This document shows positions 3,152 through 39,944 of a DNA stretch of 41,378 nucleotides, piece after piece (the stretch's first letter is position 1; each line of letters opens with the position of its first letter). Below the pieces are notes generated by a model that saw nothing but the letters and a program-made list of their open reading frames with translations, had not been told where the DNA came from and searched no databases. This DNA comes from Candidatus Kaiserbacteria bacterium RIFOXYD1_FULL_47_14. Its GTDB lineage: Bacteria > Patescibacteriota > Minisyncoccia > Phycocordibacterales > Phycocordibacteraceae. The position numbers and the translations under genes were made by a program. The stretch is taken from NCBI GenBank assembly GCA_001781915.1, contig MFMU01000009.1, positions 7,449 to 48,826 on the forward strand. The letters run 5' to 3'.

Positions 3152-3835
3152 CTATTTCTCTTTGCGCCAAGCATCGATATTCGCGTGGTGTCCGGTTTGG
3201 AGGACCTTCGGGACGCTGTAATTTTTACCTTTATACAAAATAGTTTCGGGGCGGGTGTAGACCGCTGATGAAGCGATTCGGCGTTCTTCGACTGACGCAT
3301 CTTTACCCAGAACGCCTGGGAGACGGCGGGTGACAGCGTCGACGATAGCGAGCGCGGGGATCTCTCCGCCGGTATAGACCGCCTCGCCCACAGCGAATTC
3401 TTTTATTGGTGCAAGCGTCTTCAGGATTTTCTTCGCGCGTTCGTCGATTCCTTCGTAACGGCCACAGACGAGAACAACATCGTCATATTTCGTGAGCGCG
3501 TCGGCATCTTTATTCGTAAATTGTTTGCCGCTCGGACTAAACCAAATGACCACTCGCCCATGTTTGGACTTCCGAAGTCCCAAAACTGACTTCTGAAGTC
3601 CTTTTCGCCCAAATGCTTTCTCGACTGCACGAACAACAGACAGTGCAGTCATCACCATCCCAGGCCCACCGCCGTATGGGCGTTCGTCTACCTTGCCCCA
3701 TTTATTATTGACAAAATCGCGCGGGTTCTGATAGTCAACTTTAATTTTTTTCTCTTTTCGAGCGCGTCCAACAATCGATGCATTCAAATAAGCATCGCAT
3801 GTTTCTTCAAACAATGTAATTAAGTGAAATTTCAT
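3152..3835 (-). CDS. trmD: tRNA (guanine37-N1)-methyltransferase TrmD
   Basis: 227-aa ORF with the TrmD motifs ERPYGGGPGMVM, VCGRYEGIDER, YTGGEIPALAIVDAVTRRLPGVLG and YTRP. It carries an in-frame palindromic insert (see the repeat at 3555-3601). Confidence 0.93.
   Translation of the reverse strand: MKFHLITLFEETCDAYLNASIVGRARKEKKIKVDYQNPRDFVNNKWGKVDERPYGGGPGMVMTALSVVRAVEKAFGRKGLQKSVLGLRKSKHGRVVIWFSPSGKQFTNKDADALTKYDDVVLVCGRYEGIDERAKKILKTLAPIKEFAVGEAVYTGGEIPALAIVDAVTRRLPGVLGKDASVEERRIASSAVYTRPETILYKGKNYSVPKVLQTGHHANIDAWRKEK
3555..3601. repeat. REP-B-like palindrome doublet inside trmD, in frame
   Basis: GGACTTCCGAAGTCC (3566-3580, 7-bp dyad) is followed 7 nt later by GACTTCTGAAGTC (3588-3600, 6-bp dyad). 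The 14-nt left flank CGCCCATGTTTGGA (3555-3568) is identical to 39463-39476 in the tkt gene. The element is translated on the minus strand as GLQKSVLGLRKSKHGR. Confidence 0.75.
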
Positions 3836-8943: not shown

Positions 8944-8961
8944 GCAAATACAAAAATTACT

Positions 8962-9000
8962 GGAGGTGAAACACCCAAGTTGCTTGGGTGTTTCACCTCC
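8962..9000. repeat. Palindrome C1 (perfect 18-bp stem, 3-nt loop)
   Basis: GGAGGTGAAACACCCAAG ttg CTTGGGTGTTTCACCTCC. It shares the GGT(G/T)AAAC..AAGTTGCT architecture with C2 (9930-9972) and the string GGTGAAAC(A/C)CCCAAGT with C3 (37867-37889). Confidence 0.85.
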
Positions 9001-9097
9001 AAGTTCTGGGTCTCTTGCTTTTGGCTTCGCAAGGAGCATACTTTATATGTGAGGTTTCGATCTCACTGTTGCTCTTTGGTTCAACCAATAACTCAGT

Positions 9098-9929: not shown

Positions 9930-9972
9930 TGAGAGGTTAAACCCTTAAGTTGCTGAGGGGTTTAACCTCTCA
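9930..9972. repeat. Palindrome C2 (15-bp perfect outer stem)
   Basis: TGAGAGGTTAAACCC ttaagttgctgag GGGTTTAACCTCTCA. The centre AAGTTGCT is shared with C1. It lies 4 nt downstream of the rnc stop codon. Confidence 0.85.
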
Positions 9973-12707: not shown

Positions 12708-13313
12708 TCAATGCAGAAACGACCGTCGATGGAGGATGCAAGGGCCGTATTTCTCGAGCATTTCGTAGTGTGCCTTGGTGCCGTAGCCCTTATGCTTCTC
12801 GAAGCCATAGAGCGGATACTGTGCAGAAAGTTCGACCATCAGTCGATCGCGGACGACTTTTGCTGCGATGGAAGCGAGTGAGATAATCGGAATAAGTTCG
12901 TCGCCGTTGATGATGGTTTCTTGTGCATATTCGACCGGCGCGCGAAGCGCGCCGTCGAGCAGAATGTGGACACCTGGTGTCAAAAGGCCTGTAGACACCG
13001 GGTGTCCACATTCTTCTGCGAGAGCGTTCACGCCGCGCGCGAGCGCGCGACGCACAGCGAATACGATGCCTTCTGTATCAATAACTTCAGCATTTTCGAG
13101 TTCAACTCTGAAACGAACATCACCCTGAGCGACCCGATCCTCGAGCAAAGCGAAAATCTCTTCCCTCTTCTTTTCAGACAGCTTTTTCGAGTCCGCAACA
13201 CCAATAAATTCTTTTGCCACATCAAAACCCTCTGGCACAGCGACCACCCCAACCGAGACCGGCCCCGCCAAAGGCCCTCGTCCCGCCTCATCGACCCCAA
13301 GAATAAATTGCAT
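12708..13313 (-). CDS. rnhB: Ribonuclease HII
   Basis: MQFILGVDEAGRGPLAGPVSVG is the RNase HII DEAGRG motif. Also present are LLDG..., SIAAKVVRD and GYGT..H. The start at 13313 is supported by a TATACT box 6 nt upstream. The gene contains an in-frame palindrome at 12961-13014. Confidence 0.9.
   Translation of the reverse strand: MQFILGVDEAGRGPLAGPVSVGVVAVPEGFDVAKEFIGVADSKKLSEKKREEIFALLEDRVAQGDVRFRVELENAEVIDTEGIVFAVRRALARGVNALAEECGHPVSTGLLTPGVHILLDGALRAPVEYAQETIINGDELIPIISLASIAAKVVRDRLMVELSAQYPLYGFEKHKGYGTKAHYEMLEKYGPCILHRRSFLH
12961..13014. repeat. 54-nt two-tier palindrome (REPIN-like doublet) in frame inside rnhB
   Basis: The outer arms form a perfect 14-bp pair, AGAATGTGGACACC (12961-12974) with GGTGTCCACATTCT (13001-13014). 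The inner arms form a 6-bp pair, GGTGTC (12976-12981) with GACACC (12994-12999). The right half reads GTAG-ACACCGGGTGT-CCACAT. The element is translated as EECGHPVSTGLLTPGVHIL, and the opposite strand gives the mirror peptide MWTPGV.RP.DT.CPHS (ORFs 12868..13128 and 12790..13011). Confidence 0.85.
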
Positions 13314-20981: not shown

Positions 20982-22760
20982 TTAGCGAACCTCGTATTTC
21001 TTTTCGGTAAGTGCTTCGGTAATTTTCTGCATAATAACATTCACTTCATCATCAGTGAGCGTCCGATCGAATGATTGGAAGACGAGGCGGAATGCGAGCG
21101 AGGTCTTCCCTTCTTTCTCAAATCGATCAAACTGGTCGAGACGAATCAAAAATTCTCCTGCGTTTTCACGAATGATGGATCTCGTAAGTCCATCATCGGC
21201 GTCGCTCGGCAGCCAGAGCGCGATGTCTCGCGTAATAAACGGATAGAGAGAAAATGGTTTATACGCGCCTAGATGATACTGTTTTGGTTCATAATTTTCA
21301 TCATCTTGTATCGCCGGCAATCCGGGCACTGGCTCTGATGTTTCAACTGCAAGTTTCTCGCCGTCTTTGGTGAAAATAGTGCCGATTTCAAAAAGCTTCG
21401 GCTTTTCATTTGGTGCGAGCACCAACGGCGCAAAATATTTTGCGCGTTCGAGTGCTTCTTTCATATTCTCGCTCAAAGTAGCGCGCAATGCTGGTTTCGT
21501 CTTATCGAGCGGATTCGCCAATATAATGTCGCCCTTCTTCGCGAATGATTGTGTCGAAATCTCCGTAAAGCCGTGGTCAATCAGAAAGTCCTTCACACGC
21601 TCGATGCCACGATAGCGCGCTTGATTCGGCTTCTCAGCAGCAGGAGGAAGTTCGACTATTGATACTCGATCATATCCAAGAATGCGACCAACTTCTTCGA
21701 TGAGATCTTCAGGAATCTGAATATCGTTTCGCTCGAAAGACGGTGTAACCGTAAAGGTTTCGCCATCTATTTTGGTATCTAAATCAAGTCGTCTGAACGC
21801 ATCAGCAACTTCTTCTTTTGAAAAATTCACTCCGAGAACGCCATTAATCTTCGCGAGCGACACAGAGACCTCCTGAATCTTTTCTGAACGAGTCGGGTAT
21901 ACATCTATAACACCTATGACTTCCCCGCCGGCAATTTCTTGAATGAGTGCAAGCACATCGCGCATACCATATGCAGCGAGTTCCGGCGACGGACGATTCT
22001 GAAAACGGAGTGATGCCTCGGTCGGAAGCTTCAATGCTTGTGCCGCACGGCGAATGGTCGTGCAGTCGAAGTTAGCTGATTCAACAACAATGTCAGTTGT
22101 TGCAGAAGTAATTTCTGCATGCATGCCACCCTTAACGCCCGCGATACCAATCGGAATATCTGCATTCTCGTCAGTGATGAGAAGTGTGCCCTCGGGCAAA
22201 ATAAATTCTTCTCCTGAAAGCGTCGTGATTTTTTCTTCCTTCTTCGCGCCGCGCACGCCGATAGTAAACGCCTCATCTTTTTCTACCAATTTCGTCGCAT
22301 CAAAAGCGTGCATCGGCTGACCAATGTTGAGCATCACGAAATTCGTCGCATCGACGATGTTGTTTATGGAGCGCTGACCGACTGCTTCAATCGCTTCTCT
22401 AAGCCACATCGGCGACGGACCAATCTTCACCCCCTTCACGAGCGCGCCAACATACCGCAAGCATTTCTTTCCATCTTCAATCTCAACTCTTAAGTGGGGA
22501 CTTACGAAGTCCCCATTTTGGATGGGCGTACGAAGCGGATCGTTCTTGAATGGAAGGTCGAGTATCGCCGCAAGATCTTTCGCGATGCCCCGATGACAGA
22601 GACAGTCCGCCGCGCGATTCGGCAGAACTTTCACATCCATTCTATCTCCATCCTGCTCCTCTATCTCGAAAGAATGAAAAGTGAAAGCGTCAGTAACGAC
22701 ATCTGCCGAAGGCAGCGGCTGGTCAAAATATTTCTGTAGCCAATTTCGTGAGACAATCAT
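20982..22760 (-). CDS. pheT: Phenylalanyl-tRNA synthetase beta subunit (short form, 592 aa)
   Basis: MIVSRNWLQKYF is a typical PheT N-terminus. The B3/4 region (CLRYVGALVKGVKIGPSPMWL), the B5 region and a C-terminal FDX-ACB-like domain are present. The 5' end overlaps the pheS stop by 4 nt. Confidence 0.9.
   Translation of the reverse strand: MIVSRNWLQKYFDQPLPSADVVTDAFTFHSFEIEEQDGDRMDVKVLPNRAADCLCHRGIAKDLAAILDLPFKNDPLRTPIQNGDFVSPHLRVEIEDGKKCLRYVGALVKGVKIGPSPMWLREAIEAVGQRSINNIVDATNFVMLNIGQPMHAFDATKLVEKDEAFTIGVRGAKKEEKITTLSGEEFILPEGTLLITDENADIPIGIAGVKGGMHAEITSATTDIVVESANFDCTTIRRAAQALKLPTEASLRFQNRPSPELAAYGMRDVLALIQEIAGGEVIGVIDVYPTRSEKIQEVSVSLAKINGVLGVNFSKEEVADAFRRLDLDTKIDGETFTVTPSFERNDIQIPEDLIEEVGRILGYDRVSIVELPPAAEKPNQARYRGIERVKDFLIDHGFTEISTQSFAKKGDIILANPLDKTKPALRATLSENMKEALERAKYFAPLVLAPNEKPKLFEIGTIFTKDGEKLAVETSEPVPGLPAIQDDENYEPKQYHLGAYKPFSLYPFITRDIALWLPSDADDGLTRSIIRENAGEFLIRLDQFDRFEKEGKTSLAFRLVFQSFDRTLTDDEVNVIMQKITEALTEKKYEVR
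22492..22518. repeat. REP-B-like palindrome in frame inside pheT
   Basis: AAGTGGGGACTT acg AAGTCCCCATTT forms a 12-bp stem including one G.T pair. It is translated on the minus strand as QNGDFVSPHL. The core GGGGACTTCG.AAGTCCCC resembles GGGACTTCCGA.ATCCC of REP-B. Confidence 0.6.
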
Positions 22761-26520: not shown

Positions 26521-26538
26521 CCTTGAGAAACTAACCTG

Positions 26539-26559
26539 TGTGGCGGTTCAACCGCCACA
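26539..26559. repeat. REP-A copy 1 (just 3' of the RAYT-A stop codon)
   Basis: TGTGGCGGTT c AACCGCCACA is a 10-bp dyad. It lies between the Fic stop (26520) and the RAYT-A stop (26563). Confidence 0.85.
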
Positions 26560-26562
26560 AAA

Positions 26563-27234
26563 CTATTCGAGAAGAAGTCCTCTGAAATCTTTTAATTCCT
26601 CCTTTCTTTGCAAAATCGATTCCAGAGATGAAAGCGCGAACTCTTTATACTCACCAACATTTTTAAATTGCCCTAAAATAATTTCTTTTTCGCAAATGCC
26701 CTTAATCCTCGTATCTATATATTCTCCCCAACTTGACTTGCTCTCTACTAACTTGACAGTTGTGGCGATTGAACCGCCAAGTTGATGCACATGATCATTC
26801 AAATTCACATAGGAACTGGCGTGGAGAAGATATTCGTTTGAATCAATATGTATCGCTTTGAATCTTCCCTGAAATAACGCCCCGTTTCTTTCATATTTAT
26901 TATTAAAGTACCAAGTATATCCGCCAATTCTTTTCATAAACTCACTGATACCTCCATCTACGAGCTGTTCTAAAATGAGATGGTAATGATTCGGATTCAA
27001 ACAATACGCAAGAATATTAACAAGCTTCTCCGACAGTGTGGCGGTTGAACCGCCACACTGTCTACGCGAATTCTCATAGAGACTTCCTATCGGATCAATA
27101 ACATTGAATTCAATCATACTTTTAAAGAACCTTTCTATGTCGTATCGGTTCGTAAAGATAATCCTCTTATCAACCCCTCTGTTGAATACATGATAAAATT
27201 CTTCATTCGCGAAAGGTGCTTTTCTTGTACCCAT
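26563..27234 (-). CDS. IS200/IS605-family Y1 (HUH) transposase-like protein, RAYT-like (paralogue A)
   Basis: Present are FYHVFNRG, the HUH motif NHYHLIL, GALFQGRF and SSYVNLN (Tyr helix). Two internal segments (QCGGSTATLSE and LGGSIATTVKL) are encoded by REP-A palindromes. Confidence 0.85.
   Translation of the reverse strand: MGTRKAPFANEEFYHVFNRGVDKRIIFTNRYDIERFFKSMIEFNVIDPIGSLYENSRRQCGGSTATLSEKLVNILAYCLNPNHYHLILEQLVDGGISEFMKRIGGYTWYFNNKYERNGALFQGRFKAIHIDSNEYLLHASSYVNLNDHVHQLGGSIATTVKLVESKSSWGEYIDTRIKGICEKEIILGQFKNVGEYKEFALSSLESILQRKEELKDFRGLLLE
26763..26779. repeat. REP-A copy 2 (degenerate, inside the RAYT-A ORF)
   Basis: TGGCGATT g AACCGCCA has one mismatch in the 8-bp dyad. It is translated as GGSIAT. 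Confidence 0.65.
27032..27062. repeat. REP-A copy 3 (perfect 15-bp dyad inside the RAYT-A ORF)
   Basis: GACAGTGTGGCGGTT g AACCGCCACACTGTC. It is translated as RQCGGSTATLS, about 15 codons upstream of the HUH motif. Confidence 0.9.
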
Positions 27235-27260
27235 TGTTTATATCCTAACATTCGTTCCTT

Positions 27261-27277
27261 TGGCGGTTGAACCGCCA
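27261..27277. repeat. REP-A copy 4 (5' of RAYT-A, 15 nt from the tRNA-Thr 3' end)
   Basis: TGGCGGTT g AACCGCCA is a perfect 8-bp dyad. Confidence 0.85.
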
Positions 27278-27291
27278 CAAGTGAATAAGTG

Positions 27292-27364
27292 AGCCGAGAG
27301 TCGGATTCGGACCGACGACCTGCTCATTACAAGTGAGCTGCTCTACCAGCTGAGCTATCTCGGC
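27292..27364 (-). tRNA. tRNA-Thr (anticodon UGU), no encoded CCA
   Basis: The minus strand reads GCCGAGA TA GCTC AGCTGGTA GAGC A GCTCA CTTGTAA TGAGC AGGTC GTCGG TCCGAAT CCGAC TCTCGGC T. This is a perfect 7/4/5/5 cloverleaf with anticodon loop CT-TGT-AA. The T-loop reads TCCGAAT (C at position 55) instead of TTCGAAT. Confidence 0.9.
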
Positions 27365-30231: not shown

Positions 30232-32934
30232 CTAAAATTCTTGGAAGAGCGGCAGAATATTCACGATGACCGATTGAGTTACCGAGGGGAAACCGATTGC
30301 CTGACAAGTTATGGTATAGGTTGATTGTGAGAGAATCGTGACCGCTTGTGATCCTGAAAGTGAAGTAGATGCAGTGAGTCCAGGACCTGAAATTGAACAA
30401 CTGTCCATATTGTGGGAACTCCATGAGATAGTTGAATCGGTACCAGATTGAACGCGCGACGGATTCGCACTGATGGTTGCACTTGGTTGCAGAACAATGA
30501 CTGTTACGAGAGCTGGAGCAAAAGTATTGCCATCAGCGTCTGTACAAATAATTTGATAGTTTTGGGTCTCGGTGAGCACTCCGGTGGAGACGCTGCCAGA
30601 TGTAGCTCCGCTGGTGGAGATTCCATTGGCGGGAGTACCGACAAATTCACAAGATGCCGCGCCGGAAAAATTCCACATCAATGTTGTGGACTGACCGCTA
30701 TCTATAGTGTCCAAAATCGCATAGAGAACAGAATCCGACGGATTCACAGTCACTGTAAAGCTGTTGCTCGCCACGGTTTCCCCTGTTGAACTTTTGTTTG
30801 CCCGTATGGAATATCCATAGGTGCCGCCGCTGGCTGTAATTGGCGCAGATACCGACATACTTCCCGTACAGGGAGCATATTCGGTGAGAGGAGCGCCCGT
30901 ATTGTCCAACAGTCGGCAATTAGTATTTGCCGATGTTCCATTGGTGAGCGTGTAGATCGCGGAAATAGTGTTGTTTGGCAAAGTAACTGAGTAGACGGAA
31001 GGACTGACGACAATTGAGAGAGTGGTTGGGATAGGACTTACCACAACTGACATTTCATCCAATCCGGTCAATCCGCCGTTATCAGTAACGGTAAGGCGGA
31101 AAACATAGGTGCCGGCAATCAAACCAGAAAATGTCGGGGTGAGGGTTGTGCTGTCAGTGATAGTAGGAACGGAAGGACCGCTTGTCCGCGTCCACAACCT
31201 CGCGCTGATAGTGCCGTCGGAGTCGCTAGCGCTAGCTCCGGAAACGATGACAGAATTTGTGGGAAGAGTGATAGCCCGATCAGCACCGGCGTTGGCGATT
31301 GGCGCGGAGTTGGCAGAAACACAACTGCTTCCATCCCACGAGCTCCCTGCGGCGCAAGTTGCTGTTGCTGTTTTTGTATCCAGCATAGAACCGCCGTTTT
31401 TCAAATTAAACACTGTTTGCGGATACGCCACCCACACTTGGAGTCCTGGAGATGACTGATTCGCCGAAGTTGAGAGCGTCGTTCCCGTGTTGCCATCTAC
31501 GAGTTTCGGATCTGTCGTATTCGCTGTTGACCATGTCGCATAGACCGTACTGCAGGTGCTTGCTCCGCTCGCGATGACACAGCTTGTTGGAGCAATGGAG
31601 AGAGAACCGGAGGGTGCCTGATTTGTGACACATTTATTCCCATTCCAGGCACTCCCTGCGGCGCAAGTTGCTGTTGCTGTTTTTGTATCCAATATGGTGT
31701 CGCCGCTGTTGAGATAAAACACTGTGCTCGGATACGCCACCCACACCTGTAACCCCCACGGATATGTTGGAGAGGTTGACAGTACCGTTCCCGTATTACC
31801 GTCCACGAGTTTAAAATTTGTCGCGCCTATCGTTGTCCATATTGCATAGACCGTACTGCAGGTGCTTGCTCCGCTCGCGATAACACAGCTTGTTGGAGAA
31901 ACAGAGAGGGATCCTCTAGGCGATTGATCGAAATCTTTCGTCACGACTGACATTTCATCAGACCCGGTTAAACCGGTATTATCAGTAACGGTAAGGCGGA
32001 AGACATAAGTGCCAACATACATCAAATTTGAAAATGTTGGCGTAAGCGAATTGCGGTTCGCGATAGTTGAAACAGTAGGACCGCTTATCTGCGTCCATTC
32101 TCTTGAACGAACATACCCGTCATCGCTTTCGCTAGCGCCAATGGGGCTGACATAGGAGGAAAATATATGGACCTCGAGATCGATACCGGCATTAGCGGTT
32201 GGAGATTGGTTTGGATTCGAAATGACTAAATTAAAGGTCGTGGCTGTTGTACCGCTCGAAACCGTGATGGGATAGATACCGGCTGTAGCGGTCGGCTGAA
32301 CTGAAGCCCTGAGTGTAACAGAACAGCTAGGACCGCTTCCACATCCGGCGGATTCATTAAGAGAAACTCCCGATGGGATTCCTGAAAGCGAGAAATAAAT
32401 TGGTTGGGGAGATCCGGTGATTAGCGTAGCGGTAATAGTATTTGAACCGGTGACGGCATAACTAGGCGACTTGGTAACATAGATTGGACCGGAGTTGGAG
32501 AGACCGTATCTGAACGAAGAAGGAGAATCTGAAATAACTAAATTAAAGATCGTAACTCTGATAATACCGCCGTCCATCGGTTCGCCCATAACTTGAATTG
32601 GAAAGGTGCCAACTGAAGCGGTTGGACTGACATCAAACTGGATGGTCGTAGAACAGCCAGGAACGCAGAAAGCTGGATTTGAAGATCCACTAACTCCTGG
32701 CGGTGTTCCTACTACACTGAATCTAATTACTTTAGACGGTCCCGAGTATAAGTATAATGAGGCGGTAACGGTGTTAAAGCCGTGGACAGTATAACTGGAC
32801 TTAGTGACATTGACAGTGCCGGAGTTGGAAAGCGAATAATTAAAAGAATCTGCATTTGCTGGCGGAATACCTATGGAAAAGAATATCGGCAAAATCAAAA
32901 AACCCATCAAGCAGAACCGTTTAAAAAATTTCAT
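30232..32934 (-). CDS. Secreted or cell-surface protein, 900 aa, built from several pairs of duplicated Ig/PKD-like domains
   Basis: The signal peptide is MKFFKRFCLMGFLILPIFFSIGIPPANA. The composition is Ser/Thr/Gly-rich. There are two PKD-like units (ANAG.D......SGASASDSDG..., GTYVFRLTVTDN.GLTG.DEMSVVV) and two ~100-aa Cys-containing units (PTSCVIASGASTCSTVYA.W...KLVDGNTGT...LQVWVAYP.TVF...TKTATATCAAGS). Confidence 0.8.
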   Translation of the reverse strand: MKFFKRFCLMGFLILPIFFSIGIPPANADSFNYSLSNSGTVNVTKSSYTVHGFNTVTASLYLYSGPSKVIRFSVVGTPPGVSGSSNPAFCVPGCSTTIQFDVSPTASVGTFPIQVMGEPMDGGIIRVTIFNLVISDSPSSFRYGLSNSGPIYVTKSPSYAVTGSNTITATLITGSPQPIYFSLSGIPSGVSLNESAGCGSGPSCSVTLRASVQPTATAGIYPITVSSGTTATTFNLVISNPNQSPTANAGIDLEVHIFSSYVSPIGASESDDGYVRSREWTQISGPTVSTIANRNSLTPTFSNLMYVGTYVFRLTVTDNTGLTGSDEMSVVTKDFDQSPRGSLSVSPTSCVIASGASTCSTVYAIWTTIGATNFKLVDGNTGTVLSTSPTYPWGLQVWVAYPSTVFYLNSGDTILDTKTATATCAAGSAWNGNKCVTNQAPSGSLSIAPTSCVIASGASTCSTVYATWSTANTTDPKLVDGNTGTTLSTSANQSSPGLQVWVAYPQTVFNLKNGGSMLDTKTATATCAAGSSWDGSSCVSANSAPIANAGADRAITLPTNSVIVSGASASDSDGTISARLWTRTSGPSVPTITDSTTLTPTFSGLIAGTYVFRLTVTDNGGLTGLDEMSVVVSPIPTTLSIVVSPSVYSVTLPNNTISAIYTLTNGTSANTNCRLLDNTGAPLTEYAPCTGSMSVSAPITASGGTYGYSIRANKSSTGETVASNSFTVTVNPSDSVLYAILDTIDSGQSTTLMWNFSGAASCEFVGTPANGISTSGATSGSVSTGVLTETQNYQIICTDADGNTFAPALVTVIVLQPSATISANPSRVQSGTDSTISWSSHNMDSCSISGPGLTASTSLSGSQAVTILSQSTYTITCQAIGFPSVTQSVIVNILPLFQEF
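31318..31923. repeat. Tandem duplication of a ~100-codon Cys-containing domain inside the surface-protein gene
   Basis: Long identical DNA stretches recur about 306-309 nt apart. One example is CTCCCTGCGGCGCAAGTTGCTGTTGCTGTTTTTGTATCCA at about 31343 and about 31652. Another is TAGACCGTACTGCAGGTGCTTGCTCCGCTCGCGAT at about 31541 and about 31847. Confidence 0.85.
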
Positions 32935-34374: not shown

Positions 34375-35031
34375 TTATTTGGTTTCTTCAGAAGCTGGCT
34401 CGCCCGAAGCGGTTTCTTCTTCCTTGCCTTTCCTCTCAACTTCAATTGATGAAATATCAGCTGGTACAACGACTTCTTCTTTTTCTTCAACAACTTCTTG
34501 TACGAGCGCGATAACCTCCTCCAATTCAGTCATAAGCACGACACCCGCAGGAAGTTTAATATCTTTCACATGGATTTTATCATTCATTATTTTCAACATC
34601 GAAAGATCAACCTCAAAAGCGTGTGGAAGATTCATCGGATCTGCTTCCACTTCAATTTCATGAAGTACTTTCACGAGATTTGCACCTTCCTCCACTGCCG
34701 GGGAGATGCCGATAAAGACAATCGGAATAGCAACTTCAACTTTCTCTCCCTTGGTCACCGCATAGAAATCAACATGGCGCGGGCGGTTCGTAATTGGGTC
34801 GAGATCGACTTCGTGGATGAGAGTCGGGAGCGGTTCTCCGAGACCCGAGAGAGAAACAATGGTCGCTTCGCCGGCTTCTTGGAGAATTTTTTCAAATGCT
34901 ACTGCACCAATTGAAATTGGCGTTGCCTCATGATGGGCACCGTAGACAACGCCTGGAATAGAACCTGAACGGCGCAAAGCCGCCATAGTTGCACTATTTT
35001 CCCCGCGTTTCTTAACCTTTAGCGTAAGCAT
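34375..35031 (-). CDS. rplY: 50S ribosomal protein L25 / Ctc form with an acidic C-terminal tail
   Basis: MLTLKVKKRGENSATMAALRRSGSIPGVVYG is the L25 N-terminus, followed by HVDFYAV. The track start at 35163 is a TTG that reads through REP-B1 and the RAYT-B start, so it is rejected. Confidence 0.88.
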   Translation of the reverse strand: MLTLKVKKRGENSATMAALRRSGSIPGVVYGAHHEATPISIGAVAFEKILQEAGEATIVSLSGLGEPLPTLIHEVDLDPITNRPRHVDFYAVTKGEKVEVAIPIVFIGISPAVEEGANLVKVLHEIEVEADPMNLPHAFEVDLSMLKIMNDKIHVKDIKLPAGVVLMTELEEVIALVQEVVEEKEEVVVPADISSIEVERKGKEEETASGEPASEETK

Positions 35032-35039
35032 ATTTTTTA

Positions 35040-35045
35040 AGTATG
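35040..35045 (-). promoter_or_regulatory. -10-like box CATACT, 8 nt before the rplY ATG
   Basis: The minus strand reads GCGGCATACT taaaaaat ATG(35031). Confidence 0.4.
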
Positions 35046-35073
35046 CCGCATCTTTCATATTTCCGCAACTTTC

Positions 35074-35104
35074 CTTATGTGGGATTTCCGAAACCCTACA
35101 TAGG
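35074..35104. repeat. REP-B copy 1 (upstream of RAYT-B)
   Basis: The sequence is CTTATGTGGGATTTC c GAAACCCTACATAGG. The dyad is centred on 35089 with G.T pairs and one A/C mismatch. On the minus strand it reads ATGTAGGGTTTCGGAAATCCCACAT, with a GTAG head. Confidence 0.85.
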
Positions 35105-35107
35105 TAG

Positions 35108-35113
35108 TATACT
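35108..35113 (+). promoter_or_regulatory. -10 box TATACT, 6 nt before the RAYT-B ATG (leaderless-type)
   Basis: The plus strand reads GGTAGTATACT tgtcga ATG(35120). Confidence 0.45.
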
Positions 35114-35119
35114 TGTCGA

Positions 35120-35803
35120 ATGGATTTGTACCATGTACTTAATCGTGGAATTGATGGACGCAAACTATTTCTTGACTCGCAGGACTACGCGCGATTTGTC
35201 CATAATCTGTACGAATTCAACGACACTGCCCCTGCATTAGAATTTACTCGCCGAGATACGCATAATTCGAATGTGGGATTTCCGAAACCCTACATTCGGA
35301 AAAGGAAACGGTTAGTGGAAATTCATGGATGGCATCTTGCAAAGAATCATTACCACTTACTTATTTCAGAGCTGATTGAAGGCGGGTTGGCGACTTTCAT
35401 GAAAAAGCTAAATATTGGTTTTGCAAACTATTACAATGAACGATATAGGCGACAAGGACACCTTTTCCAAGGGAAAACAAAGAAAATCCTCCTTGCGCGG
35501 CATGAACATTTTCTCTACATCCTCCATTACCTTCATTTGAATTCGCTAGATTATTTCCCTGGCGCGAAGAAATGGCGCGAACGAGACAAGGGTATTATTT
35601 CGAACATTCCAAAAATACTCGAATACCTCCGAGAATATCGCTGGAGCAGCTATCTTGATTATTGTGGTACACCGAACTTTCCATCAATCCTCACCACATC
35701 GCTTTTTGGTGATGCTCTTGGCACGAACTATGTCTCTTCTCTTAAAGAATATCTGATGGACCGAACCTCTGAGGATATAGATCAGAAATTACTAGAGTAT
35801 TAG
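35120..35803 (+). CDS. IS200/IS605-family Y1 (HUH) transposase-like protein, RAYT-like (paralogue B)
   Basis: Present are LYHVLNRG, the HUH motif NHYHLLI, GHLFQGK and LHYLHLN (Tyr helix). The protein is collinear with paralogue A. The internal segment SNVGFPKPYIR is encoded by REP-B copy 2. Confidence 0.85.
   Translation: MDLYHVLNRGIDGRKLFLDSQDYARFVHNLYEFNDTAPALEFTRRDTHNSNVGFPKPYIRKRKRLVEIHGWHLAKNHYHLLISELIEGGLATFMKKLNIGFANYYNERYRRQGHLFQGKTKKILLARHEHFLYILHYLHLNSLDYFPGAKKWRERDKGIISNIPKILEYLREYRWSSYLDYCGTPNFPSILTTSLFGDALGTNYVSSLKEYLMDRTSEDIDQKLLEY
35266..35300. repeat. REP-B copy 2 (inside the RAYT-B ORF, in frame)
   Basis: The sequence is TTCGAATGTGGGATTTC c GAAACCCTACATTCGGA. The 17-position dyad is centred on 35283 with wobble pairs and one mismatch. 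The 25-nt core is identical to copy 1. Confidence 0.85.
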
Positions 35804-35810
35804 CCATATA

Positions 35811-35841
35811 ATTATGTGGGACTTCCGAAATCCTACATGAT
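35811..35841. repeat. REP-B copy 3 (between the RAYT-B stop and the fba stop)
   Basis: The sequence is ATTATGTGGGACTTC c GAAATCCTACATGAT. It has the same polarity as copies 1 and 2. Confidence 0.85.
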
Positions 35842-35842
35842 G

Positions 35843-36847
35843 TTAAGTACCTGATACAGCGGAAGAAACCTTGGAGAGGCGGGCGAGAAATGCGGCGCGC
35901 GCATCTACAACATTTTCTTCTTCCCCCTTCCAGATGGTAAGTGCCTCTTCCTGAAGCGCGCGAGAATACGAAAATGTGAGCGGCCAGGGTATGGTTCCTT
36001 CCTGTGCTCGAGACAACCGACAAATTGCGGACAAATTGTCAGTCGCCTGATTTGGTGTCTGTCCGCCAGAGAGAAAGACGACACCCGCTATTTGTCGCGG
36101 AACGCATTTTAAAAGTGCTGCAATAGTGTCTTCTGCGACCTCTTCTGGCGCATCCTTTTTTCCACTTGATTCTCCTGAAAGCGCCATAGCGGTTTTAAGA
36201 ATGATACTCGCGCGATCAACTGACTGTTCGTCGAGCACTGAAAAAAGCATTTCAAGTGTTTCTTCAACAACGGCGCGTGCGCGTGTACGACTATGATTTC
36301 CTTCCAACAACACATCCGGCTCAAGAATAGGAACAAGACCAGCGATCTGCGATTCTTTCGCATAACTTGCGAGACGCTTCGCGTTTTCGTGAAGCGCCTG
36401 CGCTGAAGGCAGCTGGTCACCGTCAATGCGAATGACTGCACGCCACTTCGTAAAGATCGCTCCCTGCTTTTTATAAGCCGCGAGCCGTTCTGGAAGATCA
36501 AAAAGCCCTTGGGTGATAAGTTCATCAGGACTCGAAGGAAATGGTTCAGTGCCTAAATCAACTTTCACGCCCGGTACGATACCGCGCGCCGCGAGCGAAC
36601 GAGAAAATAATTTTTTATCACTGCCTTTCTCAAGAAGTGTTTCGGGAAAAAGAATGACACCTGAAAGATACTGTTCGATTCCTTCGGCGCCAAAAAATAG
36701 ATCGCGATACTGACGACGCATTTCCGCACTCGCTGAAATGCCATAGGAAGCAAGACGCGTCGTCGCCGTATGGACACTCTCATCTGCAGCGAGAATGCCT
36801 TTGCCATGGGCAAAAAATGATCGTGCTATTGCGACAAGATCAGTCAT
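35843..36847 (-). CDS. fba: Fructose-bisphosphate aldolase, class I
   Basis: GKGILAADESVHTATTRL is the class I FBA N-terminal motif, within a TIM-barrel-length ORF of 334 aa. Confidence 0.85.
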   Translation of the reverse strand: MTDLVAIARSFFAHGKGILAADESVHTATTRLASYGISASAEMRRQYRDLFFGAEGIEQYLSGVILFPETLLEKGSDKKLFSRSLAARGIVPGVKVDLGTEPFPSSPDELITQGLFDLPERLAAYKKQGAIFTKWRAVIRIDGDQLPSAQALHENAKRLASYAKESQIAGLVPILEPDVLLEGNHSRTRARAVVEETLEMLFSVLDEQSVDRASIILKTAMALSGESSGKKDAPEEVAEDTIAALLKCVPRQIAGVVFLSGGQTPNQATDNLSAICRLSRAQEGTIPWPLTFSYSRALQEEALTIWKGEEENVVDARAAFLARLSKVSSAVSGT

Positions 36848-37864: not shown

Positions 37865-37866
37865 TT

Positions 37867-37889
37867 ACTTGGGGGTGAAACCCCCAAGT
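37867..37889. repeat. Palindrome C3 / bidirectional terminator-like hairpin
   Basis: ACTTGGGGG tgaaa CCCCCAAGT has a 9-bp stem. It contains GGTGAAACCCCCAAGT, which differs at one position from GGTGAAACACCCAAGT in C1. It lies between two convergent stop codons. Confidence 0.7.
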
Positions 37890-37893
37890 GAAA

Positions 37894-38073: not shown

Positions 38074-39067
38074 TATGAATGAATGCACGAATAGCATCTG
38101 CTATGTGGAGAACATCGAGTCCATAGTGAGCGAGCAATTCGTCTGGCTGGCCTGACTGACCAAATTGATCCTGTATACCCAGTCGATGTATCGGCACGGG
38201 ATACTGTTCAGAAAGAAATTCAGTAATCGCACTTCCGAAACCGCCCGCGACTTGATGTTCTTCAATGGTGACGACGCGGCCCGCACGCTTCGCCACATCG
38301 AGCACCGCTTCAGTATCGAGCGGCTTTACGGTCGGTACATGGAGAACGACACACTCGATGCCTTCTTCGGCGAGCGTGCGGGCCGCACAAAGTGCCGTAT
38401 ATCCTAACGAACCAGTCGAAAGAATCGCAATTTTGAGCGTTCCTCCGCCAACTGGCGAATCCCAGAGAAGAAGCGCTTTCCCTATTTCAAATGGTGTTTC
38501 TGAAGTTGTAAAAGTCGGTGTTACTGCACGACCGAAACGAATGTATATCGGTCCATCGGTTGTCGCTGCAGCAACGATTGCCTTCCGCGCTTCTTCTGCA
38601 TCGCACGGCGCAATCACCGTCATATTCGGAAGCATGCGCATCATACCAATATCCTCAAGCATCTGGTGGGTCGCTCCATCAGGACCGACTGAAACGCCCG
38701 CATGCATTCCGCATATCTTTACTGACATCTGATTAAGCGCGATAGTGGTGCGAATGTGTTCATAATTTCTGCCCGGACTGAACACGGCGTAGGACGCAAT
38801 AAAAGGAATTTTCCCTGCAGCCGCCATGCCAGCGGCAACTCCTGCCATATTCTGCTCGGCAACGCCCATTTCAACAAAACGATCAGGGAACTCTTTCTGA
38901 AACTGTTCAGCGCGCGTGCTCTCAGAAACATCAGCGCAGAGCACGACGACGCGCGAGTCGGCTTTTCCTGCTTCCACTGCGCCACTTCCAAAACCATCGC
39001 GCATCGGAGCTTTTTCGATATCGTCCGCGAACACTTTTGCTGACATTCTTGCATCAGGATTAATCAT
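38069..39067 (-). CDS. tkt: Transketolase, C-terminal subunit (pyrimidine-binding and C-terminal domains)
   Basis: Present are MRDGFGSGAVEAGKAD..VVVLCADVSESTR, FVEMGVAEQNMAGVAAGMA and GATHQMLEDIGMMRMLPNM. The start at 39067 overlaps the N-subunit stop by 8 nt (ATGATTAA). An alternative ATG lies at 39046. Confidence 0.88.
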   Translation of the reverse strand: MINPDARMSAKVFADDIEKAPMRDGFGSGAVEAGKADSRVVVLCADVSESTRAEQFQKEFPDRFVEMGVAEQNMAGVAAGMAAAGKIPFIASYAVFSPGRNYEHIRTTIALNQMSVKICGMHAGVSVGPDGATHQMLEDIGMMRMLPNMTVIAPCDAEEARKAIVAAATTDGPIYIRFGRAVTPTFTTSETPFEIGKALLLWDSPVGGGTLKIAILSTGSLGYTALCAARTLAEEGIECVVLHVPTVKPLDTEAVLDVAKRAGRVVTIEEHQVAGGFGSAITEFLSEQYPVPIHRLGIQDQFGQSGQPDELLAHYGLDVLHIADAIRAFIHI

Positions 39068-39944
39068 GGCGGATTTCTTTAAGGAATCGTTCTCCTTCTT
39101 CATCTGTAGGCACTTTCCCGTGCCAATGATAATCATTTTCAATCTCCGGCACGCCCTTGCCGGGAATCGTGTGTGCGATAATGAGCGTCGGTTTTTCATC
39201 TATCGTTTTTGCTTCATCAATTGCTTGTATAAACTCTGTGATGTTGTGCCCATCGACTTCAAGCACATGCCAATTGAATGCGCGATATTTATCAGCGAGC
39301 GGTTCGAGCGGCATTATATCCTCGGTCATACCACCTATCTGTATATTGTTGCGATCTATAATCGCAGTCAAATTTGAAAGTTTATTTTTCCCGATGAACA
39401 TCGCCGCCTCCCAGGTGCTTCCTTCTTCCTGCTCGCCATCGCTCATCACACAGTAAATGCGCCGCCCATGTTTGGATATCGGAAGTCCCACATCTGATGT
39501 GGGACTTCCGATATCCCACATTTTATCGTCCATACGAAAGGCGTACGCTATACCAGCCGCCTGCGAGAGACCTTCGCCAAGCGGACCTGATGTGGTTTCA
39601 ACACCCGGCAATACTAAACGATCAGGATGCCCCTGGAGTCGGCTGCCAAACTTCCGTAGTGAGAGACATTCTTCAATAGGGAAATAGCCAGCGTGTGCCA
39701 TCGTCGCATAGAGTACCGGACAAATATGCCCGTTTGAGAGAACGAGCCGATCGCGCTCTTCCCACTCGGGCCACTTCGGATCGTGATTGAGAATATGAAA
39801 ATAAAATGCTGCAAAGATATCCGCCATACCGAGAGAACCAGCCGTGTGTCCGCTTCCTGCGGCAACAAGCATCTGAACAATTGTCTCGCGAATTGACTTC
39901 GCTCGTTTTTCCAGTGTGAGTAATTGCTCTTCAGTGAGTGCCAT
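39060..39944 (-). CDS. tkt: Transketolase, N-terminal (thiamine-diphosphate-binding) subunit
   Basis: Present are GSGHTAGSLGMADIFAAFYF, RDRLVLSNGH, LQGHP, VMSDGEQEEGSTWEAAMF and IIDRNNIQIGG. The gene contains an in-frame REP-B doublet at 39463-39521. Confidence 0.9.
   Translation of the reverse strand: MALTEEQLLTLEKRAKSIRETIVQMLVAAGSGHTAGSLGMADIFAAFYFHILNHDPKWPEWEERDRLVLSNGHICPVLYATMAHAGYFPIEECLSLRKFGSRLQGHPDRLVLPGVETTSGPLGEGLSQAAGIAYAFRMDDKMWDIGSPTSDVGLPISKHGRRIYCVMSDGEQEEGSTWEAAMFIGKNKLSNLTAIIDRNNIQIGGMTEDIMPLEPLADKYRAFNWHVLEVDGHNITEFIQAIDEAKTIDEKPTLIIAHTIPGKGVPEIENDYHWHGKVPTDEEGERFLKEIRHD
39463..39521. repeat. REP-B doublet (REPIN-like) in frame inside the transketolase N-subunit gene
   Basis: A perfect 20-bp inverted repeat pairs GGATATCGGAAGTCCCACAT (39474-39493) with ATGTGGGACTTCCGATATCC (39497-39516). 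The overlapping unit ATGTGGGACTTCCGATATCCCACAT spans 39497-39521. The left flank CGCCCATGTTTGGA is identical to that of the trmD element. The doublet is translated as MWDIGSPTSDVGLPISKHGR. Confidence 0.9.

Follow-up and report, generated by a model that had tools for sequence, protein, structure and literature searches.

A palindrome shared by the flanks and the reading frame of RAYT-like HUH enzyme genes in Patescibacteria

In a family of genes for single-tyrosine (Y1) HUH enzymes in Patescibacteria, most genes carry a palindrome of their own in front, behind and, translated, inside the reading frame. We describe this arrangement for gene B, which lies on a 41,378-nucleotide (nt) stretch of DNA (hereafter the window) from contig MFMU01000009.1 of Candidatus Kaiserbacteria bacterium RIFOXYD1_FULL_47_14 (assembly GCA_001781915.1), for its paralogue gene A in the same window, and for their relatives in other genomes. 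The closest known systems are the REPtrons, in which genes for REP-associated tyrosine transposases (RAYTs, also called TnpA(REP); REP, repetitive extragenic palindrome) are flanked by REPs arranged as bacterial interspersed mosaic elements (BIMEs) or as REP doublets forming hairpins (REPINs) (PMC2817692, PMC3333891, PMC5581495). In our judgement gene B is probably a REPtron-like relative of the RAYTs whose cognate hairpin found its way into a permissive loop of the gene itself and has been kept current there by copying.

RESULTS

Three copies of one palindrome at gene B

The 25-nt palindrome ATGTGGGAYTTCCGAAAYCCTACAT matches exactly, each time on the + strand, at three sites of gene B: before the start codon, within the reading frame and after the stop codon (Table 1). 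A preliminary description of this DNA had reported the three sites, and the same layout holds throughout the family. In shuffled sequence 0.00 matches to the pattern are expected, compared with 4 observed in the window, one of which has 2 mismatches. The upstream and internal copies of gene B are identical at 25 of 25 positions, two non-Watson-Crick positions included, and the downstream copy differs from both at 2 positions. Read on the minus strand, all three open with ATGTAGG, as had been noticed before. The extended dyads given earlier are correct, but several spacings need adjustment: 15 nt rather than 16 separate the upstream dyad from the ATG, and the downstream dyad follows the stop codon after 7 nt rather than 8. 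The internal copy starts 15 codons past the EFN motif of the protein, not about 17, and ends 18 codons ahead of the first HUH histidine, within the 15 to 20 proposed. Folded as single strands of DNA, the copies of gene B reach no more than moderate stability (−3.9 to −8.7 kcal/mol, z −1.7 to −2.8). Most orthologues have perfect stems.

The arrangement across the family

For the comparison, 79 loci were fetched from species-representative genomes, all of them metagenome-assembled genomes of the Patescibacteria type; together with the window they hold 93 family genes, and labels such as L081 denote individual relative loci. Every family gene is a continuous open reading frame (ORF) across the internal site, and the palindrome is thus translated. 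We rejected a frameshift or bypass at the hairpin, since all 31 loci that had been missed by the initial motif filter give a single continuous tblastn alignment across the site.

Internal palindromes were located as the best dyad in the segment between EFN and HUH, where the median score is 11, compared with 5.5 in random segments of equal size (93 genes). This way of finding them inflates the pairing statistics reported below, a bias of which the flank matches are free. The flanks were searched with the central 21 nt of each internal palindrome, within at most 130 nt upstream and downstream and with at most 3 of 21 mismatches, for the 67 of the 93 family genes that have a strong internal palindrome. 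An upstream copy is present in 98.5% of these genes (88% at no more than 1 mismatch) and a downstream copy in 91% (71% at no more than 1 mismatch), whereas the same search succeeds in 0.4% of random windows of the same loci and in 5.9% of the non-cognate flanks of other family genes. The median distance between upstream copy and start codon is 18 nt, and the downstream copy follows the stop codon after a median of 6.5 nt. Exact flank copies also accompany many genes scored as weak for the internal palindrome, and the full arrangement is found in about 80 of the 93 genes.

Chance repeats, or generic palindromes of the genome that have nothing to do with the gene, can practically be discounted as an explanation. 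These genomes are indeed rich in palindromes, and a dyad scoring 9 or more occurs in 7% of random segments about 130 nt long; a chance origin is nevertheless refuted by the shuffle expectation and the flank statistics, and each paralogue has a palindrome sequence of its own.

The preliminary description had raised the question of whether the segment between EFN and HUH always encodes the local REP, and the aligned homologues answer it with usually: about 10 family genes, mostly diverged paralogues, keep the flank copies, the HUH motif and the Y-x3-N motif but lack an internal palindrome and have a shorter loop. At L014 and L015, which are otherwise intact syntenic orthologues, the internal copy has decayed between intact flanks. 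The foot of the hairpin reads ATGTAGG in many orthologues and GTGG, GTCG, GTTG, GAAA, GATG or TATC in others.

Covariation, copying and orientation of the copies

When 72 distinct internal hairpins are aligned by their centers, both-side changes occur at all 13 stem pairs. Paired cells make up 91.1%, compared with 65.7% after shuffling (none of 500 shuffles reaches the observed value) and 31 to 45% with slid partners, and compensatory changes account for 225 cells where 67 are expected. The stems are about 95% Watson-Crick and have a median length of 13 bp. Within the series of syntenic orthologues, too, the palindrome changes by compensatory substitutions. The preliminary description had considered a peptide conserved without dyad symmetry in its DNA; the homologues present the opposite, varying the peptide and keeping the dyad. 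Its proposal of two co-evolving enzyme/hairpin pairs agrees both with the compensatory substitutions and with the finding that each paralogue, in the window and in other genomes, has its own palindrome at all positions.

The copies also change as units. An exact 21/21 copy of an imperfect internal palindrome lies in a flank in 14 of 32 cases. All four orientation combinations of the copies occur, which rules out a fixed orientation rule for the flanking copies such as that of insertion sequence (IS) ends or REPIN arms. The locus L081 is a syntenic orthologue on a 693-kb contig and is 84.6% identical to the window over 4 kb. Its upstream and downstream hairpins are identical to those of the window at 25 of 25 positions while the other intergenic bases differ by about 15%, and five changes make its internal hairpin the exact reverse complement of the window copy, turning FPKPY into FRKSH in frame. 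This flip, the clearest single event in the comparison, indicates that whole hairpins are copied or flipped rather than drifting one base at a time while selection maintains pairing.

Paralogue A and its four copies

According to the preliminary description, the paralogue A carries a palindrome that is unrelated to that of gene B and sits at the same relative position. Sequence and position are as claimed, but gene A has four copies and not one (Table 1). The first in-frame copy folds at −18.3 kcal/mol (z −7.8). In subfamily A, 29 homologues were compared, and in each the peptides at the two in-frame sites vary together (QLGGPTPKP goes with QLGGPTPKL, for example). At the DNA level, all four copies are present at L087 and three were detected at L086, while L088 has an upstream, a first in-frame and a C-terminal copy and has lost the second site. 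A gene for tRNA-Thr (TGT; 27291-27364, minus strand) immediately precedes gene A on that strand, and the 57-nt gap between them contains the upstream hairpin of A.

The product of gene B as a Y1 HUH enzyme

The protein has the motifs YHVLNRG (residues 4 to 10), EFN (32 to 34), NHYHLL (76 to 81), GHLFQG (113 to 118) and LHYLHLN (135 to 141). H77, H79, Y137 and N141 are invariant in 122 aligned homologues, and HUH together with a correctly spaced Y-x3-N is present in 91 of the 93 family genes. In the Pfam model Y1_Tnp (PF01797), gene B scores 21.0 bits, short of the cut-off of 23, and gene A scores 26.9 bits and passes it; many homologues carry a precomputed PF01797 match. At least 1,900 homologues were found for B and at least 2,587 for A; those with names belong to Kaiserbacteria, Paceibacterota and Parcubacteria, and a few of them carry the label RayT.

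A search of the Protein Data Bank (PDB) sequences with the single gene B protein gave no match, and the family profile gave a marginal match to ISDra2 over the HUH strand, in which NHYHLL aligns with DHVHLL of ISDra2 TnpA; fold comparison was therefore needed to find relatives in the PDB. An AlphaFold model built on the 122-sequence alignment has a mean predicted local distance difference test score (pLDDT) of 63, with values of 80 to 94 in the core. The modelled core consists of a strand (residues 3 to 10), a helix (20 to 32), two strands (66 to 73 and 77 to 84, the latter carrying HUH), a helix (89 to 108), a strand (116 to 123) and a helix (128 to 138) on which Y137 is located. Residues 40 to 61, which include the peptide encoded by the palindrome, have a pLDDT below 50. 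The 27 highest-ranking PDB structures in Foldseek are without exception transposases of the IS608, ISDra2, RAYT or IS200 type, with target TM-scores of 0.5 to 0.63; the best are the hairpin-bound TnpA of IS608, TnpA of ISDra2, the E. coli RAYT (4er8) and TnpA of IS200.

We conclude that the product of gene B is a Y1 HUH enzyme that, by sequence score, falls outside the curated RAYT family. The earlier assignment to the IS200/RAYT class is thus upheld by the invariant motifs and the structural matches. Loss of the catalytic tyrosine on proper alignment had been named as an argument against it; the candidate tyrosine is instead invariant. Y137 is the candidate by correspondence of motif and fold rather than by residue-level superposition; the counterpart motif in IS608, Y-x3-Q, ends in a polar metal ligand. 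Residues from about 140 to 227 (window positions 35537-35800) form a conserved C-terminal region of about 90 residues with the motifs WRERDKG, YRWSSYLDYC and NFPSILT, which is modelled with low confidence, matches no family and is absent from the IS200/IS608 transposases.

A resident locus

In about 28 species-level genomes the orthologue of B has the gene for ribosomal protein L25 on one side and that for class-I fructose-bisphosphate aldolase on the other; further out lies a PfkB kinase gene. Identity to the window proteins is 52 to 76% for the B orthologues, 51 to 75% for L25 and 53 to 79% for the aldolase. This conserved locus argues that gene B is resident and not a jumping insertion sequence. 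Paralogues in the same genome, up to five per genome in the sampled set, are 53 to 71% identical to B and each have a distinct hairpin, those noted at sites other than the L25-aldolase locus being 53 to 65% identical; a near-identical second copy of the gene unit was found in none of the sampled genomes. At two loci, L028 and L075, the complete unit of hairpin, gene and hairpin has the opposite orientation but still lies between L25 and the aldolase (compared with window positions 34375-36847), an in-place inversion of the sort expected if the flanking palindromes can recombine as inverted repeats.

An active insertion sequence of the IS200 kind, bounded left and right by the outer hairpins and with an accidental internal one, is a highly improbable reading of the 762-bp unit. 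The size and the order of hairpin, small Y1 gene and hairpin do resemble IS200, and the nearest structures are those of IS608 and ISDra2. However, the neighbors stay the same and the unit diverges at their pace, and the paralogues are diverged and have other hairpins; on synteny and the lack of duplicates we reject an active element. In addition, the left and right hairpins have the same sequence in any orientation, unlike the differentiated ends of insertion sequences.

Copies elsewhere in the genomes

Absence of the motif from the rest of the genome had been put forward as a test of the preliminary description; the motif does occur outside the gene B unit. Outside the gene units we counted 25 extra copies in 1.12 Mb (2.2 per 100 kb), 13 of which are inside long ORFs and several of which are inverted doublets. 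One such doublet, missed in the preliminary description, lies in frame in the gene for a transketolase N-subunit (39060-39944, minus strand; Pfam Transketolase_N match) and consists of a copy at 39497-39521 with 2 mismatches to ATGTGGGAYTTCCGAAAYCCTACAT and an inverted partner at 39474-39494. It is perfect over 21 bp, adds about 19 residues and folds at −24.7 kcal/mol (z −10.5). In relatives the site is empty in about 22 cases and holds a single or double insert in about 14, and where checked (L001 and L002) the insert matches the gene B variant of the same genome. An exact-pattern scan of metagenomes recovered the orthologous gene unit and in-frame copies in dnaX and in a 392-residue ORF, the start of which resembles a glycosyltransferase as judged by eye.

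Two related palindromes lie in frame in trmD and pheT (Table 1). They share the type GGACTT(C)CGAAGTCC, and both host genes are essential; the trmD segment is absent or different in relatives. Other intergenic palindromes in the window are TTACTTGGGGGTGAAACCCCCAAGTGA at 37865-37891 and dyads of 41 to 43 nt with a TTG center at 8961-9001 and 9930-9972. The palindrome at 37865-37891 is of the same sequence type as the A-subfamily hairpin of L087, and the genome of the window may therefore hold a third enzyme/hairpin pair elsewhere. A near-perfect palindrome of 60 nt at 12958-13017, between or inside short ORFs, is made of two inverted ATGTGGACACC... units (87% complementary, no spacer) and looks like another doublet family. 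Away from these elements, an ORF of 900 residues (30232-32934, minus strand) contains direct repeats at 31042-32100, 72 to 122 nt long with 74 to 89% identity and spaced by about 306 and 900 nt, which suggests a protein of repeated domains.

Promoter region and the transcript

Aligning orthologous upstream regions brings out a conserved TAnnnT box, which 44 of the 72 tallied family genes have 6 to 7 nt ahead of the start codon; in gene B it reads TATACT. A generic promoter and terminator scan of positions 34900-35950 returned nothing useful and did not call this box. Should TATACT serve as the −10 element, the upstream palindrome would contain the −35 region and the transcript would be leaderless or nearly so, as the position of the box suggests. 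With the box between the upstream hairpin and the ATG, the upstream copy is predicted to lie outside the mRNA, which still allows for regulation through the DNA itself. For the divergent L25 gene a plausible promoter is TTGCGG-17-CATACT (35040-35068, minus strand), which ends 9 nt before the L25 ATG, and a CGCAAC motif on the + strand is conserved in the orthologous spacers between L25 and gene B. The upstream hairpin of B would then be wedged between back-to-back promoters in a spacer of 88 nt.

The hairpins could instead act as RNA, as 5′, internal and 3′ stems of the gene transcript that set its stability or translation in the manner of REPs and of the IS200 leader. The copies adjoin the start and stop codons, REPs are known stabilizers of 3′ untranslated regions, and the hairpin in the IS200 leader acts on translation (PMC3733652). 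We nevertheless consider an RNA function very unlikely. On the sense strand, G-T and A-C stem mismatches number 6 and 14 in the upstream, 12 and 15 in the internal and 8 and 5 in the downstream copies, and without an excess of G-T over A-C there is no RNA signature. Imperfect copies that are exact reverse complements turn wobble pairs into mismatches in RNA, and the −10-like box stands between the upstream hairpin and the ATG. A gathering-threshold search of the window against Rfam returned the tRNA-Thr only, and thus no match for the hairpins.

Table 1. Positions of genes A and B, their palindromes and related elements in the window
Feature	Position	Strand	Description
Gene B	35120..35803	+	227 residues; predicted Y1 HUH enzyme, IS200/IS608 TnpA fold, RAYT-like; HUH H77/H79, candidate catalytic tyrosine Y137 with N141
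Gene B, upstream copy	35077..35101 (extended dyad 35074-35104)	+	25-mer ends 18 nt before the gene B ATG
Gene B, in-frame internal copy	35271..35295 (extended dyad 35266-35300)	+	translated NVGFPKPYI; loop between helix 20-32 and strand 66-73
Gene B, downstream copy	35814..35838 (extended dyad 35811-35841)	+	begins 10 nt past the stop codon; the convergent aldolase gene lies on its other side
−10-like box TATACT	35108..35113	+	6 nt before the gene B ATG; by consensus only
Gene A	26563..27234	−	223-residue paralogue, 30% identical to B, same fold family
Gene A, upstream copy	27258..27279		GTGTGGCGGTTSAACCGCCACA family; between tRNA-Thr and the start of A
Gene A, in-frame copy 1	27036..27057 (extended dyad 27032-27062)		CGGSTAT; same loop as the internal copy of B
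Gene A, in-frame copy 2	26760..26781		LGGSIAT; just past the helix of the candidate catalytic tyrosine; degenerate in the window
Gene A, downstream copy	26538..26559		3 nt past the stop codon
Inverted doublet, REPIN-like, B palindrome family	39474..39521		in frame in the transketolase N-subunit gene (39060-39944, −), encodes MWDIGSPTSDVGLPISKHG
Related palindrome TTTGGACTTCCGAAGTCCCAAA	3555..3589		in frame in trmD (3152-3835, −), encodes VLGLRKSKHG
Related palindrome GGGGACTTACGAAGTCCCC	22488..22522		in frame in pheT (20982-22760, −), encodes GDFVSPHL

DISCUSSION

How did a palindrome come to lie inside the gene that it also brackets? We hypothesize that gene B and gene A each belong to a REPtron-like unit in which they are resident and passed on vertically, and that each enzyme is a single-tyrosine HUH nuclease and ligase of the IS200/IS605-RAYT kind that presumably recognizes its own hairpin in single-stranded DNA. 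Each would maintain a low-copy population of palindromes scattered over the genome, singly or as inverted doublets, many of them in frame in the housekeeping genes of these compact genomes. The internal copy would be one more member of this population that hit the enzyme's own gene, in the permissive loop that links the first helix to the strand ahead of HUH, and subfamily A would have taken a second such copy past the tyrosine helix. Repeated recopying or exchange, in either orientation, would hold the internal copy identical to the flanks, either by the cleave-and-rejoin activity of the enzyme or by short-tract gene conversion, and all positions would then follow when an enzyme/hairpin pair drifts to a new sequence. 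TnpA(REP) of E. coli binds and cleaves single-stranded REPs and recombines REPs in vitro, and REPtrons do not transpose as units (PMC3333891, PMC8266576). By analogy with this enzyme, the products of genes A and B may bind, cut and copy or exchange their hairpins, with the internal copies presumably tolerated and not required. We consider this reading the more probable one, with moderate confidence, and lean towards the internal copy as a product of self-targeting that is kept up to date and not an indispensable regulatory site.

Several observations weigh against it. About 80 of 93 family genes (about 86%) have a copy at the in-frame site, compared with about 14 of 36 (about 39%) at the transketolase site, and paralogues that are only 30% identical have the in-frame site in common. 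With such a high occupancy, a pure passenger model needs a strong bias of the enzyme for acting in cis or a difficult loss, and a selected function is the simpler explanation. The GTAG head is found in part of the family only, and the RAYT model of NCBIfam (NF047646, REP_Tyr_transpos) gives 19.5 bits for B and 24 bits for A, where its cut-off is 80. Dispersed copies, at about 2 per 100 kb, are far fewer than in classical REP families, with their tens to hundreds of copies across a genome; in an exact-pattern scan, the 693-kb contig of the relative holds only 4 matches, 3 of them at the gene unit itself. Moreover, the link between enzyme and hairpin rests on co-location and co-variation, both of which are inflated by vertical inheritance.

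The hairpins at the gene could instead be selected cis sites, with the enzyme, or a cruciform extruded by supercoiling, acting on the upstream and in-frame copies to throttle synthesis of the enzyme or to load it in cis. The occupancy of the in-frame site fits such a role, as do the fixed distance of the upstream copy from the conserved −10-like box, which would place the −35 region inside the palindrome, and the conservation of the flank hairpins between L081 and the window amid diverged intergenic bases. HUH initiators are known to have their nick site within their own gene in phiX174 gene A and in pT181 repC. On the other hand, catalytic motifs and flanking palindromes are retained in the roughly 10 family genes that do without an internal copy, that copy is found decayed in the otherwise intact orthologues at L014 and L015, and the orientation is free at every position. 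The same palindromes also lie in unrelated housekeeping genes, to which an autoregulatory logic does not apply, and double-stranded REP is not bound by TnpA(REP) of E. coli (PMC3333891). Taken together, we regard selected cis sites, the main alternative, as rather unlikely, if deserving of attention.

A bolder version, which we put forward only tentatively and would not expect to hold, is that the in-frame hairpin is a selected part of a self-referential module of enzyme and substrate that has been stable over the large radiation of the Patescibacteria. If this were true, the enzyme gene itself would join the hairpin population that it maintains, with copies in its reading frame and across its promoter. 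Such a module would allow control in cis, through self-limitation or loading, and would ensure joint inheritance and joint updating of enzyme and substrate.

With the hairpin written into the gene, each homologue carries its own label linking enzyme to hairpin, and the family is thus a natural data set on specificity. The label can often be read in the protein as well (for example NVGRTTSYI, MSGRTTSRH or MKDLGGLSF), and the two or three further cognate copies that a gene typically has serve as internal controls. Such data could teach how Y1 HUH enzymes read their hairpins, which bears on the biology of REPs and REPINs, on IS200/IS605 transposition and on engineered HUH tags. The family also extends systems of the REP-RAYT type to the reduced genomes of the candidate phyla radiation, where about half of the extra copies lie in ORFs and several are in frame in essential genes. 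The examples of hairpin turnover, namely, in-place flips, inversion of the whole unit and empty or occupied alleles, constrain how such repeats are copied.

The resemblance to REPtrons is broad. The enzyme in both is of the Y1 HUH type and agrees in fold and catalytic motifs; the gene is bracketed by its own short palindrome and, like a housekeeping gene, has a fixed locus with vertical descent and no identical duplicates. Several diverged gene/palindrome pairs per genome, inverted doublets elsewhere and, in many members, a GTAG-type foot (ATGTAGG) are also shared. Unlike RAYTs, the proteins of the gene B family are longer, at about 220 residues, have a conserved C-terminal region and score far below the RAYT cut-off. 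The palindromes differ from those of REPtrons in being near-perfect and in either orientation, in their sparse dispersal with about half of the copies inside ORFs, and in the cognate copy that the enzyme gene itself carries in frame at a fixed site, or at two sites in subfamily A. Paralogues per genome exceed the 1.3 to 1.8 per replicon of RAYT groups (PMC5581495). The open-access literature that we searched contains no report of a cognate REP inside a RAYT gene or of RAYTs in Patescibacteria.

With the IS200/IS605 family (IS200, IS608 and ISDra2), which provides the best structural matches, the gene B family shares a small Y1 gene between sub-terminal hairpins and, presumably, recognition of hairpins in single strands. 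In contrast to that family, the unit shows no sign of mobility, has identical ends and no TnpB partner, and keeps its locus across species. Palindromes in frame in genes are known from the Rickettsia palindromic elements (RPEs) and from intragenic GTAG/CGTC REPs (PMC3733652). The in-frame palindromes in trmD, pheT, the transketolase gene and dnaX are like these, adding 9 to 20 residues at tolerated sites, and related genomes show the site empty or occupied. They are unlike them in that they are tied to identifiable enzyme genes and that one of the host genes encodes the putative mobilizing enzyme. The sites in phiX174 gene A and pT181 repC are replication origins of a phage and a plasmid and are present once. 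There, as in gene B, the presumed DNA hairpin or site of an HUH enzyme lies within the enzyme's own coding sequence; gene B, however, is chromosomal and involves no replicon, and its site is one of three or four identical copies. In-frame REPs and REPtrons were already known (PMC3733652); what appears to be new, judged by the open-access literature that we searched, is a cognate REP carried in frame at a fixed place within the gene for its enzyme, present across the family and changing in concert with the copies that flank it.

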